DNA from: Escherichia coli
Lineage (GTDB): Bacteria > Pseudomonadota > Gammaproteobacteria > Enterobacterales > Enterobacteriaceae
Strand: one strand, 5' to 3'
DNA length: 64,000 nucleotides
Assembly (NCBI RefSeq): GCF_022846255.1
Contig: NZ_AP025682.1
The number at the start of each line of letters is the position of its first letter. Positions within the stretch are counted from its first letter, which is position 1. Positions 10,200-17,744 of the stretch are shown here, piece by piece. The position numbers and the translations under genes were made by a program. The notes below the pieces were generated by a model. The model was not told where the DNA came from. It searched no databases and was given only the letters and a program-made list of their open reading frames with translations.

Positions 10200-10973
10200 A
10201 TGTCCGAGAATAAATTAAACGTTATCGATTTGCACAAACGCTACGGCGAACACGAAGTGCTGAAAGGGGTTTCACTGCAAGCGAATGCCGGAGATGTAAT
10301 TAGCATCATCGGATCGTCGGGATCGGGGAAAAGTACCTTTCTGCGCTGCATTAACTTCCTCGAAAAACCGAGCGAAGGATCGATCGTGGTCAATGGCCAG
10401 ACGATCAATCTGGTGCGCGACAAAGATGGTCAACTCAAAGTCGCCGATAAAAATCAGCTGCGCTTACTGCGCACACGCCTGACGATGGTATTCCAGCACT
10501 TCAATCTCTGGAGCCATATGACGGTGCTGGAAAACGTCATGGAAGCGCCGATTCAGGTGTTGGGCCTGAGCAAGCAGGAAGCGCGCGAGCGGGCGGTGAA
10601 GTATCTGGCGAAAGTCGGGATAGACGAACGTGCGCAGGGGAAATATCCGGTGCATCTTTCCGGCGGTCAGCAACAGCGTGTTTCCATCGCAAGGGCGCTG
10701 GCAATGGAACCGGAAGTTTTACTGTTTGATGAACCTACCTCGGCGCTCGATCCTGAACTGGTAGGCGAAGTGTTGCGTATTATGCAGCAACTGGCAGAAG
10801 AGGGGAAAACCATGGTGGTGGTGACTCACGAAATGGGCTTTGCTCGCCATGTTTCTACTCACGTCATTTTTCTCCATCGGGGGAAAATAGAGGAAGAAGG
10901 CGCGCCGGAGCAGTTATTTGGCAACCCGCAAAGCCCTCGTCTGCAACAGTTCCTTAAGGGATCGCTGAAATAA
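10200..10973 (+). CDS. hisP: Histidine ABC transporter ATP-binding protein
   Basis: 257 aa; Walker [13 protein letters not shown] signature LSGGQQQR, Walker [12 protein letters not shown]. Confidence 0.97.
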
Positions 10974-10978
10974 TTCCC

Positions 10979-11010
10979 CCTCCGGTAGCTAACGCTGCCG
11001 GAGTATTTTC
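10979..11010 (+). terminator. Weak terminator-like hairpin after hisP
   Basis: CTCCGG...CCGGAG stem with 12-nt loop followed by TATTTT. Confidence 0.35.
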
Positions 11011-11169
11011 AAGGGAAATTTGCGAGTCCGCTTCCGCTGAAATGTAAAAGTTGCAGCACGCTAAAAATACTTCTGAATTCGCTGTCCAAAGATAAAAACT
11101 GCCTGCTGCATTGGGTGTTAATCGTGGTTATTGTCGCGTCATCTTAAATTTGAGGGGTGACGGAACGCC

Positions 11170-12060
11170 ATGACAATATCGACAACTTCCACGCCGCATG
11201 ATGCGGTATTTAAATCTTTTTTACGCCATCCAGACACCGCCCGGGATTTTATTGATATTCATCTCCCCGCGCCGCTGCGCAAACTGTGTGATTTAACGAC
11301 GCTTAAACTGGAACCAAACAGTTTTATTGATGAAGACCTGCGGCAATATTATTCCGACCTCTTGTGGTCTGTGAAAACGCAGGAGGGAGTGGGTTATATT
11401 TATGTGGTGATAGAGCACCAAAGTAAGCCGGAAGAATTAATGGCTTTTCGCATGATGCGCTATTCCATTGCGGCGATGCAAAACCATCTTGATGCAGGCT
11501 ATAAAGAGCTTCCATTGGTGATCCCGATGCTGTTTTATCATGGTTGCAGAAGTCCTTATCCTTATTCACTCTGCTGGCTTGATGAATTTGCCGAGCCTGC
11601 TATAGCCCGCAAAATATATTCATCGGCTTTTCCGCTGGTGGATATTACCGTGGTGCCAGATGACGAGATTATGCAACATCGCAAAATGGCGCTGTTGGAG
11701 TTAATTCAGAAACATATTCGTCAGCGCGATCTGTTGGGATTAGTCGACCAAATTGTTTCGCTGCTAGTTACAGGGAACACTAATGACAGACAGCTAAAAG
11801 CCCTGTTTAATTATGTATTACAAACGGGGGATGCCCAGCGTTTCCGTGCATTTATTGGTGAGATAGCGGAACGCGCACCACAAGAAAAGGAGAAACTGAT
11901 GACCATTGCTGACAGATTACGTGAAGAAGGCGCAATGCAGGGCAAACACGAAGAAGCCCTGCGCATTGCTCAGGAGATGATGGAAAAAGGATTTGACCAC
12001 GAAGTCATCCTGACGCTGACCCGACTTTCACCAGACGATCTTATCGCGCAAAGCCACTAA
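11170..12060 (+). CDS. rpnB: Rpn-family recombination-promoting nuclease (YhgA-like, PD-(D/E)XK)
   Basis: 296-aa ORF recognised as E. coli YfcI/RpnB; SD GAGGGGTGA upstream. Confidence 0.88.
11899..12060 (+). CDS. Candidate internally initiated C-terminal small protein of rpnB (53 aa, in frame)
   Basis: AAGGAG at 11887..11892, 6-nt spacer, in-frame ATG at 11899; product [11 protein letters not shown]...AQSH. Confidence 0.35.
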
Positions 12061-12107
12061 CCCTGTAACACCGGGAGTTAACTGGCGGATGTTTGCAGTA
12101 AACCACA

Positions 12108-13001
12108 TCAGCGAACGACATCCGCCAGCGCCTCTTCTAAATCGTACCAGCGAAACGCAAAACCCGCTTCTTCCAGCTTTTTTGGCAGCGTGCGTTGACC
12201 GCCTAATACCAGAACTGAAGATTCGCCCATTAACAACCGAATGGCGGTCGCAGGGACGCGCAAAATGGCCGGGCGATGCAGCGCATGACCCAGTGCATGG
12301 GCAAATTGTTCATTGCGCACCGGGTAGGGCGAAACCATATTAAATGGCCCGCGCAGCTCTTTATCCAGCAGCCAGAGAATACCGTTGACCATATCATCAA
12401 TATGAATCCAGGCCAGATACTGCCGACCAGAGCCAATCGGCCCGCCCAGGCCAAAACGAAATGGCGGCAGCATTTTACCGAGAATACCGCCATCCGGTGC
12501 CAGCACTACGCCGGTACGCAGCAGGCACACTCGCGTTTTGTCACTTTGTGCCCGGCAGGCAATTTCTTCCCAGCGGGCGCAGAGTTTATGGGTAAATTCG
12601 TTATGCGGCGGTTCCTCTTCGGTAACCACCACTTCACCTAAGTCGCCATAATAGCCCGTTGCCGAGCCGGAAATGAGTACCGACGGCGGCGTGTCGCTGG
12701 CATTAATCAAATCGACCAGTTTTTGCGTGATATTCCAGCGGCTTTGGCAGAGACGCTCTTTTTGCTCGTGAGTCCAGCGTTTATCAGCAATCGGCTCTCC
12801 GGCCAGGTTGATTACCGCATCAACGCCGTTGAGGTTACTTTGATCGGCAAGCCCTTGCCATAGTGTCACCCGAGGGCCGAGAACAGAACTGGCTTTCTGC
12901 GGGTTACGCGTCATTACCGTGATTTGATGGCCCAGCTCCAGCAAACGTGGAATCAAATGGCGACCAATTAATCCCGTCCCTCCGGTGATCACTATGTTCA
13001 T
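12108..13001 (-). CDS. yfcH: NAD-dependent epimerase/dehydratase family protein
   Basis: 297 aa; N-terminal Rossmann motif GGTGLIG. Confidence 0.93.
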
Positions 13002-16075: not shown

Positions 16076-16109
16076 AAAAAGAGCCGCAATTGCGGCTCTT
16101 AACATTTTT
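16075..16109. terminator. Bidirectional terminator between convergent yfcD and yfcC
   Basis: A6-AGAGCCGCAATTGCGGCTCT-TAACATTTTT. Confidence 0.7.
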
Positions 16110-17628
16110 AGTGGTAGCCCATCAACTGAGCGCCGATCACCACGACGCTGGACATAATAAACAGCAGTCCAAGCAGTGTCGCGCCCACCTTCAGCCAGTT
16201 ACGGAAGTCCACCCGGCAAACACCGAGCGTTGCCATTAACGAAGCTGAGGTCGGGTAAATGATGTGGCTGAAGCCATCACCAAACTGGAACGCCAGAACG
16301 GTAACCTGACGGTTTACACCGACCAGATCGCCAAGCGGTGCCAGTAACGGCATGGTTAACGCCGCCTGACCAGAACCAGACGTCACGAAGAAATTAAATA
16401 CCGCCTGGAAGAGCAACATAAACCAGGCCGCGACCGCGTTATCCAGACCGCTAATGGCATTGGCAATGCTGTTGAGGATGGTATTTAACACGCTGGCATC
16501 ACCCGCTTCACCATTACCGACCAGCAGCAAAATCCCTTTGGCGAAACCCACCAGCAGGGCAGGGGCGATCATCATTCGCGCTCCTTCGGTAAAGGATGAA
16601 GCCATGGTATTAACCGTCATGCCGTTAAGGCGGAAAACAACGCCGATGATGCCAATCACCAGACCCATGGTGAAGAACTGGCTGGCAATTTCAGGAATAA
16701 ACCAGGCATTAACGATCACGCCCCAAATCACCCAGACCATTACGGCGGTCAGGACAATTAATACCAGCCAGTCACCAAAGGTAAACGGACGTTGTTCAAC
16801 ATCCGCCTGCTTTTCACGAAAGAAGCGGTCGGACTCATGCACGCGTGACAGAAGAGGATTCTTTTTCACTCGTGAGGCGTACACCATGGTAAAGATCAGG
16901 CCAATCAGAGTGGCGATAACCCACACCACGATGCGCAACCCGGAGCCAGAAAGCACCGGAACGCCGGCAATCCCCTGAGCAACAACCACACAAAACGGGT
17001 TCATCCACGAACTGGCAAAACCGATTTGCGTGGCGATATAGGTCACCAGGACGGTGGTAATACTGTCATAGCCCAGCCGGACCATTAGCGGTGCGATGAT
17101 AATGGCAAAGGCGACGGCCTCTTCTCCCATACCAAATACCGCGCCGCCAAGTGAAAACAGAATAAAGAGCGCAGGAATAAAGAGAATTTCATTTCCGCGG
17201 GTATGGCGAATAAGCGCCAGGATACCGTTATCAATGGTTCCTGTACGCATCACAATGCCAAACGCGCCGCCAATCACCAGCATAAACATGATGATGCCAA
17301 CGGCTGTCCCGTATTTCGATCCTGAGGTTAACCCTTCAAACGGGAAGTTCATCAGGCCCGGGCGTTCATCGCCCGTCGTGAACAGCTGTACGCGGTGATA
17401 CTCAGGTTCGCCTGCTTCGTTAGTCAGAATGCGAAATGAGTGTGGATCTACGACTTTGCGTGTTTTTGTTTGACCATCAACCTGATACTGCACTTCCTGA
17501 CTGTCAAACATGCCCACCGGAACTACCCAGGTGGCAAGGCTGGTTAAAATGGCAACAAAAAAGATAATCACCAACGTATCGGGCATTGCCCATCTTCTTG
17601 TTGGTTTAGATTCAGTGATTGCGGACAT
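16108..17628 (-). CDS. yfcC: Putative transporter, YfcC family (C4-dicarboxylate anaerobic carrier-like)
   Basis: ORF 16108..17649; start set at internal ATG giving MSAITESKPTRRW..., 506 aa, polytopic. Confidence 0.9.
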   Translation of the reverse strand: MSAITESKPTRRWAMPDTLVIIFFVAILTSLATWVVPVGMFDSQEVQYQVDGQTKTRKVVDPHSFRILTNEAGEPEYHRVQLFTTGDERPGLMNFPFEGLTSGSKYGTAVGIIMFMLVIGGAFGIVMRTGTIDNGILALIRHTRGNEILFIPALFILFSLGGAVFGMGEEAVAFAIIIAPLMVRLGYDSITTVLVTYIATQIGFASSWMNPFCVVVAQGIAGVPVLSGSGLRIVVWVIATLIGLIFTMVYASRVKKNPLLSRVHESDRFFREKQADVEQRPFTFGDWLVLIVLTAVMVWVIWGVIVNAWFIPEIASQFFTMGLVIGIIGVVFRLNGMTVNTMASSFTEGARMMIAPALLVGFAKGILLLVGNGEAGDASVLNTILNSIANAISGLDNAVAAWFMLLFQAVFNFFVTSGSGQAALTMPLLAPLGDLVGVNRQVTVLAFQFGDGFSHIIYPTSASLMATLGVCRVDFRNWLKVGATLLGLLFIMSSVVVIGAQLMGYH

Positions 17629-17744
17629 AGCGCAAATATTCCCTTGCACAAAACAAAGTGGTAAGTATGCAAATTGAGATGGCGCAATTCATTGATGCAG
17701 CGCAGTTAAGCAAGATAATCAGAAAGGATTAATGCAAATTAAGA

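Follow-up and report, generated by a model that had tools for sequence, protein, structure and literature searches.

Genetic organization of the rpnB locus

The window, which is the whole stretch of 64,000 nucleotides of Escherichia coli DNA analysed here (contig NZ_AP025682.1 of assembly GCF_022846255.1), carries the rpnB (yfcI) gene between hisP (10200..10973, + strand) and yfcH (12108..13001, - strand). This gene order is that of the b2305 neighbourhood in E. coli K-12, which identifies the gene as an orthologue of rpnB specifically, and RefSeq gives the name rpnB to the matching gene in 4742 complete E. coli genomes. Compared with the K-12 chromosome, the window is collinear in reverse orientation from position 2434643 down to below 2366000, at 97-98% identity. 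The best match among complete E. coli genomes reaches 98.7% identity over hisQMP and 98.3% over rpnB, and none is identical to the window. The gene is absent from approximately 12% of E. coli genomes, and this presence/absence polymorphism indicates that any role it fulfils is dispensable.

The full-length product, hereafter called RpnB-L, is by its sequence a PD-(D/E)XK nuclease of the Transposase_31 group and the presumed toxin of the pair described below. Residues 8-209 match Transposase_31 (Pfam PF04754) with an E-value of 5.8e-91, and the protein scores 187.8 bits against the Rpn family signature TIGR01784 (NCBIfam), whose cutoff is 52.1. In the paralogous RpnA protein, catalytic or functional residues were defined by mutation as D11, D63, E82, Q84, R94 and D165 (Kingston et al. 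2017). All six residues, the last of them in the PDDEI motif, are invariant in an alignment of the RpnB protein of the window with RpnA, RpnB, RpnC and RpnE of K-12. The same authors found that overexpressed RpnB was among the most lethal of the paralogs and that it induced the SOS response (Kingston et al. 2017).

The coordinates of the features of the locus are collected in Table 1. The position homologous to the main transcription start site (gTSS) of rpnB was obtained by mapping onto the window a site determined by Cappable-seq in strain EDL933 (PMC10469882), the flanks of which are nearly identical in the two sequences. At the other end of the gene, a perfect inverted repeat overlaps the 47-nt gap between the convergent rpnB and yfcH genes and may represent a 3'-end structure that they share. 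Transcript overlap between yfcH and rpnB has been listed elsewhere (PMC12288877). The left arm of the repeat coincides with the downstream edge of the segment that is present or absent among E. coli genomes. The gap harbours no extra, stand-alone copy of the small protein described below. In all the genomes inspected, K-12 among them, RefSeq has a single rpnB CDS.

Table 1. Features of the rpnB locus (window coordinates)
Feature	Position	Strand	Remarks
Position homologous to the main rpnB TSS (gTSS)	11094	+	76 nt upstream of ATG 11170; by homology
rpnB (yfcI) full-length CDS, RpnB-L	11170..12060	+	296 aa; from the list of open reading frames
ATGACA, candidate -35 element	11783..11788	+	5/6 match to TTGACA; found in 68/78 homologues
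TTTAAT, candidate -10 element	11806..11811	+	5/6 match to TATAAT; found in 67/78 homologues
Position homologous to the rpnB-S internal TSS (iTSS)	11820	+	an A; 79-nt leader; by homology
Shine-Dalgarno sequence AAGGAG	11887..11892	+	codons Lys240 (AAG) and Glu241 (GAG)
rpnB-S CDS, Met244 to the shared stop codon	11899..12060	+	53 aa; probable antitoxin
Four-amino-acid repeat zone, helix 1	11929..11952	+	S residues 11-18; GAMQ-GKHE, short form
Allele-variable patch	11980..12018	+	codons 271-283; covers S residues 28-40, from the end of helix 1 into helix 2
Perfect 11-nt inverted repeat, CTGGCGGATGT / ACATCCGCCAG	12082..12128		25-nt loop; lies where rpnB and yfcH converge

A candidate internal start codon in rpnB

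An earlier note on this DNA, made without database searches, had proposed that an AAGGAG sequence located 6 nt ahead of an in-frame ATG at 11899 provides an unusually good start context within rpnB, from which a 53-residue C-terminal protein would be made. Each of these elements was borne out. The Shine-Dalgarno (SD) sequence is followed by the spacer AAACTG (11893-11898) and by the ATG (11899-11901), which is in the frame of the full-length gene ((11899-11170)/3 = 243) and codes for Met244; translation from 11899 gives exactly the peptide proposed. As for the context, we collected the 449 in-frame ATGs internal to the 56 open reading frames of at least 120 residues in the window, and we paired the 14 nt upstream of each of them to the 3' end of 16S RNA. 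The site at 11899 has the strongest anti-SD pairing of the entire set (-8.7 kcal/mol, rank 1 of 449) and is the sole one at or below -8.5 kcal/mol.

The AAGGAG-N6-ATG motif is found three times in the 64 kb, both strands considered, for 0.41 expected occurrences, and none of 100 shuffled sequences reached three. Translation against K-12 confirmed that elaA (47632) and elaD (46459, minus strand) start at the other two copies, so that in the window this motif marks only real or published initiation sites. The signal in rpnB is beyond chance. Both the minimum-energy and the centroid structure predicted for the short leader leave the SD sequence and the ATG unpaired; compared with shuffled controls, the short-leader region displays no excess structure (z = 0.73).

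Other methionines in the C-terminal part of the frame were considered as potential starts. Neither Met256 (11935) nor Met270/271 (11977/11980) figures in the list of the strongest-pairing contexts of the window, and in the latter case an AGGAG sequence lies too close, 0-3 nt ahead of the codons. In addition, the small K-12 protein has been studied by placing a stop codon at its residue D29, and in the K-12 sequence D29 falls at the expected position only if the small protein starts at Met244, which makes the published numbering incompatible with Met256 or Met270/271 starts.

Conservation of the initiation signal

The loss of the SD sequence in Rpn paralogs or orthologs had been set beforehand as the observation that would speak against an internal start, and we found it retained in the five K-12 paralogs and in nearly all the homologues analysed. 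In K-12, all five rpn genes as well as the stand-alone ypaA gene harbour [A/G][A/G]GGAG-N6-ATG at the homologous position. The residues encoded under the SD sequence are Lys-Glu in rpnA, rpnB and rpnE, Gly-Glu in rpnC and Arg-Glu in rpnD, with GGG and the rare Arg codon AGG as the first codon in rpnC and rpnD, respectively.

For a larger sample, one scan of species-representative genomes provided 80 related loci, at 56-97% protein identity, in the enterobacterial genera Escherichia, Citrobacter, Salmonella, Klebsiella, Raoultella, Enterobacter, Kluyvera, Superficieibacter, Phytobacter and Pantoea. Three loci with premature stop codons were left out, and the remaining 77 together with the gene of the window make up a set of 78 intact homologues. 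The codon aligned with Met244 is ATG in all 78 of them. The hexamer 12 to 7 nt upstream, and hence at a spacing of 6 nt, is AAGGAG in 58 cases, AAGGAA in 8, AGGGAG in 6 and GAGGAG in 3.

We then compared codon usage under the SD sequence with that of the rest of the same genes. Wherever residue 240 is a Lys its codon is AAG (67/67), whereas AAG represents 30% of the Lys codons elsewhere in these genes and is found in 8/77, 8/63 and 35/78 cases at three other conserved Lys columns. Similarly, the Glu241 codon is GAG in 68 of 77 sequences, compared with 41% elsewhere. The homologues are related and these counts are therefore not independent, and it is the contrast with other columns of the same alignment that serves as the control. 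Where Lys240 is replaced, the codons used are AGG, GAG or GGA, and the purine run is kept. This codon bias indicates that the constraint acts on the RNA itself. Testing synonymous codons at an SD sequence against the rest of the gene is a cheap way to tell real internal starts from chance purine runs.

Within the species, of 5426 complete E. coli genomes, 4755 have a match to a 55-nt segment covering the initiation region, 3913 of them at 99% identity or more and 842 at 95-99%. Five E. coli alleles that differ in the small protein have identical SD, spacer and ATG sequences.

A putative internal promoter and short transcript

Third codon positions of the 78 homologues are unusually conserved in two patches upstream of the internal start, at codons 204-208 and 212-214. 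In codons 204-206, the synonymous third positions are 94-99% conserved, including that of a rare Ala codon, GCT. These patches, together with a published TSS, were used to locate the internal promoter. They harbour the ATGACA and TTTAAT hexamers listed in Table 1, whose spacing is 17 nt in all 78 homologues. ATGACA is a putative element of the internal promoter. The exact register of the -10 element is ambiguous inside the AT-rich block TTTAATTATGTATT. A consensus promoter scan of positions 10900-12200 revealed no plus-strand promoter near the internal start; that scan demands an A at the second position of the -10 element, and TTTAAT was missed because it lacks an A at that position.

In the rpnB gene of E. 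coli O157:H7 EDL933, an internal TSS (iTSS) was mapped by Cappable-seq at genome position 3236065, +650 from the start codon. RT-qPCR validated this site, which was stronger than the gTSS during exponential growth in LB (PMC10469882). We fetched that locus and mapped it onto the window. The two sequences agree at each of the 45 nt preceding the iTSS, and TTTAAT sits 8 nt upstream of the mapped site. Transcription start sites within all rpn genes are also cited from dRNA-seq data by Zhong et al. 2023 (PMC10400941). Judging by sequence identity only, the window would therefore possess an internal promoter and TSS for a short mRNA.

Predicted structure of RpnB-S

The 53-residue peptide, hereafter called RpnB-S, aligns over its whole length, first residue to first residue, with the 49-residue chain of crystallised RpnA-S (7th0_A). 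An AlphaFold2 model generated with 25 S sequences (pLDDT 81.3) consists of helices spanning residues 3-29, 34-41 and 45-52, and RpnB-S is thus predicted to fold into a compact bundle of three helices, the first of them long. A Foldseek search of the PDB with this model yielded 7TH0 as the top match, with a probability of 1.00, TM scores of 0.69/0.78, an rmsd of 2.4 A and 43% identity. It is the sole confident match; the weak ones that follow are helix-turn-helix (HTH) repressors, ArsR-like or Trp repressor-like, all with E-values >1.

A Pfam search of the RpnB tail did not identify DUF4351. A sequence search of the PDB with the 53-residue peptide was headed by designer proteins made of pentatricopeptide repeats, with E-values down to 1e-33, which we rejected as homologues. 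Their total scores are the sums of 8-11 weak repeats with individual E-values of 2-19, and these matches reflect generic helical-hairpin composition.

Allelic variation in RpnB-S

Two types of variation affect the small protein. Other E. coli alleles have one extra unit in the repeat zone of helix 1 (GRND-GLIL-GKRE), making an S protein of 57 residues. Among the homologues S ranges from 52 to 81 residues, with 63 of the 78 lengths fitting 53+4n. The differences in length consist of runs such as GRQE, GKLE and GLQE that start near S residue 11, and the four-residue repeat variation thus begins within the interval of 8-20 residues past the initiating Met. Variation of S by four-residue repeats was described by Zhong et al. 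2023 (PMC10400941), and the pattern seen with the window agrees with it.

The second type of variation is a patch of 13 residues, which are LDRGLDRELVMMV in K-12 and different in the window, where they match the allele of the O157:H7 (EDL933) / UTI89 type. There are 30 nt differences in total between the rpnB genes of the window and of K-12. The first 729 nt account for 14 of them, with one amino-acid change in the 243 N-terminal residues, and the 39 nt of codons 271-283 for 15, with 11 amino-acid changes. All 11 of the 53 residues that distinguish the two RpnB-S proteins are therefore found within S residues 28-40. Over the 184 nt from the SD sequence to the stop codon, matches in complete E. 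coli genomes are at 99% identity or more in 354 genomes, 95-99% in 536, 90-95% in 2581 and 80-90% in 1210.

Such clustering suggests that the patch arose by allelic exchange and not by gradual drift. It agrees with reports that the tail is hypervariable, although it is a type of change distinct from variation in repeat number. One may speculate that the patch is a second specificity determinant, exchanged by recombination, that defines RpnB-L/S compatibility groups among Escherichia lineages, although we hold this to be rather unlikely. If it were true, K-12 RpnB-S would fail to neutralise the RpnB-L protein of the window, and a phage-encoded factor would possibly select for surface diversity.

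Published experiments on Rpn small proteins

The earlier note mentioned that Rpn nucleases had been reported to encode intragenic C-terminal antagonists, and this is documented by two studies. Retapamulin profiling (Ribo-RET) revealed peaks at in-frame internal starts from rpnA to rpnE, which are apparently the major initiation sites of the rpn genes; that study also reported that the internal product of rpnE is nearly identical to YpaA and that synonymous sites are conserved in yfaD and yadD (Meydan et al., bioRxiv 10.1101/520783). Using immunoblots of SPA-tagged proteins, Zhong et al. (PNAS 2023, PMC10400941) detected five small Rpn proteins, including RpnB-S. In the same work, K-12 RpnB-L with mutated ribosome-binding site and internal start inhibited growth more than the wild-type gene did, and RpnB-dependent SOS induction was lowered by RpnB-S, not by RpnA-S, an effect abolished by the stop codon at D29 of RpnB-S. 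The K240R+E241D+M244L mutant of rpnA no longer produced RpnA-S, RpnA-S blocked DNA cleavage in vitro, and protection against phages was shown only for plasmid-encoded RpnP2 (PMC10400941).

The nested antitoxin RpnB-S is thus already published for the K-12 orthologue, and our analysis is a rediscovery of a known system. The K-12 experiments also support the proposal that rpnB is a self-contained toxin/antitoxin-like module, and they apply to a gene whose sequence is identical to that of the window from 11845 to 11963, including the SD sequence, the spacer and the ATG.

Proposed mechanism and alternative explanations

It is very probable that rpnB of the window constitutes a gene-within-gene toxin-antitoxin pair, with RpnB-S nested in the gene for RpnB-L. 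RpnB-L, a putative PD-(D/E)XK DNA endonuclease of 296 residues, would damage DNA and be toxic if overproduced. Codons 205-214 would contain the promoter of a second, shorter mRNA that begins near 11820, and ribosomes would initiate at AAGGAG-N6-ATG (11887-11901) on both the short and the full-length mRNA. The resulting RpnB-S, made of the last 53 residues of the frame and identical in sequence to the C-terminal domain of RpnB-L, would bind RpnB-L through this shared domain and block its nuclease activity. The length of helix 1, which varies by four-residue repeats, may tune the pairing between S and L. As they are read from the same DNA, L and S co-vary automatically.

In this scheme our own observations are the anatomy of the locus, its nucleotide-level conservation, its identity to experimentally mapped sites and the fold predicted for the small protein. 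That S is translated, that there is an internal TSS, that L is toxic and that S inhibits it comes from the literature on the K-12 and O157 alleles. The allele of the window probably behaves like these, given its sequence, and its S protein is assumed to pair with its own L because both share the sequence. The RpnB system may serve in phage defence. That rpnB is present in some E. coli genomes and absent from others would fit such a role and is no proof of it. PADLOC 2.0, which has no model for RpnB-L or RpnB-S, found nothing.

Three alternatives were weighed against this reading. The Lys-Glu-x-Leu-Met sequence might be conserved for the sake of the full-length nuclease, the SD-like purines being a by-product and a separate product immaterial. 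At the protein level E241 and M244 are indeed invariant and K240 is common, and a conserved peptide alone would preserve some purine-rich codons. It would not produce the exclusive use of AAG at Lys240 in genes that use it for a minority of their other lysines, or at the three other Lys columns, nor replacement codons, including the rare AGG, that all retain the purine run. For K-12, this explanation is contradicted by the Ribo-RET peaks, the tagged small proteins and the loss of the product upon mutation of the ribosome-binding site and start codon, and we consider it highly improbable. Even less credible is the idea that the internal SD sequence is a translational pause that helps the N-terminal nuclease domain to fold, and not a start site. 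The site does coincide exactly with the junction of the conserved domain and the variable tail, but a pause leaves unexplained the invariant ATG at a fixed spacing of 6 nt, the internal promoter and TSS and the detected small proteins. Moreover, SD-induced pausing in E. coli has largely been ascribed to an artefact of profiling.

A third possibility accepts that RpnB-S is made but gives it another main role, either as a subunit that lends structure or specificity to an L-S holoenzyme, comparable to Cas11d made from within cas10d, or as an HTH DNA-binding autoregulator. RpnA-L and RpnA-S form a stable complex, S is more abundant than L from the native promoters, as expected of a constitutive partner, and S is related to HTH motifs by HHpred as well as through the weak Foldseek matches to HTH repressors mentioned above. 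Those structural matches are not significant, however, and for RpnB itself the removal of S raises toxicity and S supplied in trans lowers SOS induction, while in vitro RpnA-S blocks DNA cleavage. A mainly non-antitoxin role is therefore quite unlikely, and we favour the nested toxin-antitoxin pair.

Comparison with known systems

The closest known system is the RpnB-L/RpnB-S pair of K-12 (yfcI, b2305; PMC10400941), with the same locus, the same lengths of 296 and 53 residues and the same Met244 start; the two differ by the substitutions described above. RpnA-L/RpnA-S (yhgA, 7TH0) has a common architecture, with AAGGAG-N6-ATG at Met244 and a three-helix S protein, and the residues changed in its published triple mutant bear the same numbers as in the RpnB protein of the window. 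Over their full length the two proteins are 66% identical, and RpnA-S is 49 residues long, compared with 53 for RpnB-S. There is no cross-protection, in that RpnB is not blocked by RpnA-S. RpnP2-L/S, encoded on a plasmid of ECOR13, belongs to the same family and follows the same intragenic antitoxin logic. It differs by its plasmid location and its greater toxicity, and it is the sole member shown to protect against phages (T-even and BASEL #40).

The stand-alone genes coding for ypaA / RpnE-Ss proteins of the DUF4351 family (PF14261) specify the same small protein with the same AAGGAG-N6-ATG signal (PMC10400941). In ypaA, a stop codon is present ahead of the SD sequence and the gene is free-standing downstream of rpnE, unlike the nested rpnB-S.

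Beyond the family, Cas11d in cas10d and McrB-S in mcrB, the latter annotated in K-12, are other cases of two products read from one frame by means of an internal SD sequence and start codon, the short product modulating the long one. Both are unrelated to Rpn proteins, and Cas11d is a required positive subunit rather than an inhibitor. In type II toxin-antitoxin operons, a protein antitoxin likewise binds and neutralises a protein toxin and is present in excess. Those operons make use of a separate, adjacent antitoxin gene, whereas RpnB-S is the C-terminal domain of the toxin itself, encoded by the same codons, and as it is read from the toxin's own codons, L and S cannot diverge independently. 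As regards proteolysis of a labile antitoxin, Zhong et al. favour the release of S over its degradation (PMC10400941).

Implications

Our analysis establishes nothing new about how the system works. It indicates that nested antitoxin genes of this class can be recognised from raw sequence alone, and that current annotation, be it the RefSeq CDS or PADLOC 2.0, overlooks the nested rpnB-S. The allele-variable patch and the presence/absence polymorphism of rpnB offer modest leads on how the specificity of these antitoxins may diversify.

Conservation and annotation of rpnB and RpnB-S

In RefSeq, the full-length rpnB coding sequence alone is annotated, both in K-12 (2422649-2423539) and in the other records inspected, and RpnB-S, its 53-residue C-terminal antitoxin, has no feature of its own, whereas mcrB-S does have one in the same K-12 record. 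The gene ypaA, which codes for the stand-alone small protein RpnE-Ss, continues to carry a pseudogene flag. The fit of RpnB to the NCBIfam entry NF007418, named 'ISNCY family transposase', is nearly as good as its fit to the RpnA model. This name is at odds with published work, which concluded that Rpn proteins are not transposases.

PDB sequence searches with the 53-residue peptide (11899-12057) returned inflated matches to designer pentatricopeptide-repeat proteins, in which a stretch of the peptide aligns with GKLDEALKLFEEMVEKGIKPDVV. The individual E-values range from 2 to 19 per repeat, each insignificant alone; we rejected homology to these proteins and read the matches as a helical-hairpin resemblance. 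An rpnD-like gene, with an S peptide and Shine-Dalgarno context close to those of Escherichia rpnD, is present on contig JAIJJM010000397.1 (2997 nt), which is assigned to a metagenome-assembled genome of Collinsella (Actinobacteria). The contig is probably of enterobacterial origin and was mis-binned with the Collinsella genome.

Besides the rpnB site, only one internal AAGGAG in the window precedes in-frame ATG codons; it lies within a yfcC-like transporter gene (see the table). Initiation at this putative start would yield a C-terminal product of approximately 155 residues. The main text of the retapamulin ribosome-profiling study of Meydan et al. (bioRxiv 10.1101/520783) makes no mention of this site.

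Features of the window beyond the rpnB internal start
Feature	Position	Strand	Context
Internal AAGGAG then in-frame ATG codons, CCGAAGGAGCGCGAATGATG	16572-16590	minus	inside yfcC-like transporter ORF (16108..17649, minus)
Perfect 11-nt inverted repeat, 25-nt loop	12082-12128		between convergent rpnB and yfcH
elaD remnant (start codon and first ~110 nt)	near 46350-46463	minus	

Genomic variation around rpnB

Positions 1-64000 of the window are collinear with the E. coli K-12 genome in reverse orientation, starting at 2434643 and running to below 2366000, at 95-98% identity. Two K-12 segments lack counterparts, at window 44707-44725 and 46241-46350, namely yfbN-yfbO-yfbP (K-12 2387438-2390000) and most of elaD together with yfbK (K-12 2382826-2385914). 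Among complete E. coli RefSeq genomes, the best identities are 98.7% for hisQMP and 98.3% for rpnB, none being higher. The DNA probably comes from an Escherichia lineage with few sequenced members or from a Shigella-like genome.

The right arm of the inverted repeat that follows rpnB lies within the 3' end of yfcH, and the K-12 yfcH-rpnB pair is listed among overlapping-transcript pairs (excludons) in PMC12288877. In approximately 680 of 5426 complete E. coli genomes, the match covers only the initial 80 nt of the spacer between hisP and rpnB. In strain S9 the empty site is clean, with 158 nt separating hisP and yfcH. On its downstream side, the absent segment ends at the inverted-repeat arm CTGGCGGATGT. 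The presence of rpnB is polymorphic in E. coli, involving a segment at ~11079-12082 of the window.

Fifteen of the 30 nucleotide differences from K-12 rpnB fall in a 39-nt patch (11980-12018, codons 271-283), causing 11 amino-acid changes in RpnB-S, in a region spanning the end of helix 1 and helix 2. This patch looks like a mosaic, recombined allele, which the window shares with O157:H7 and UTI89-type strains.
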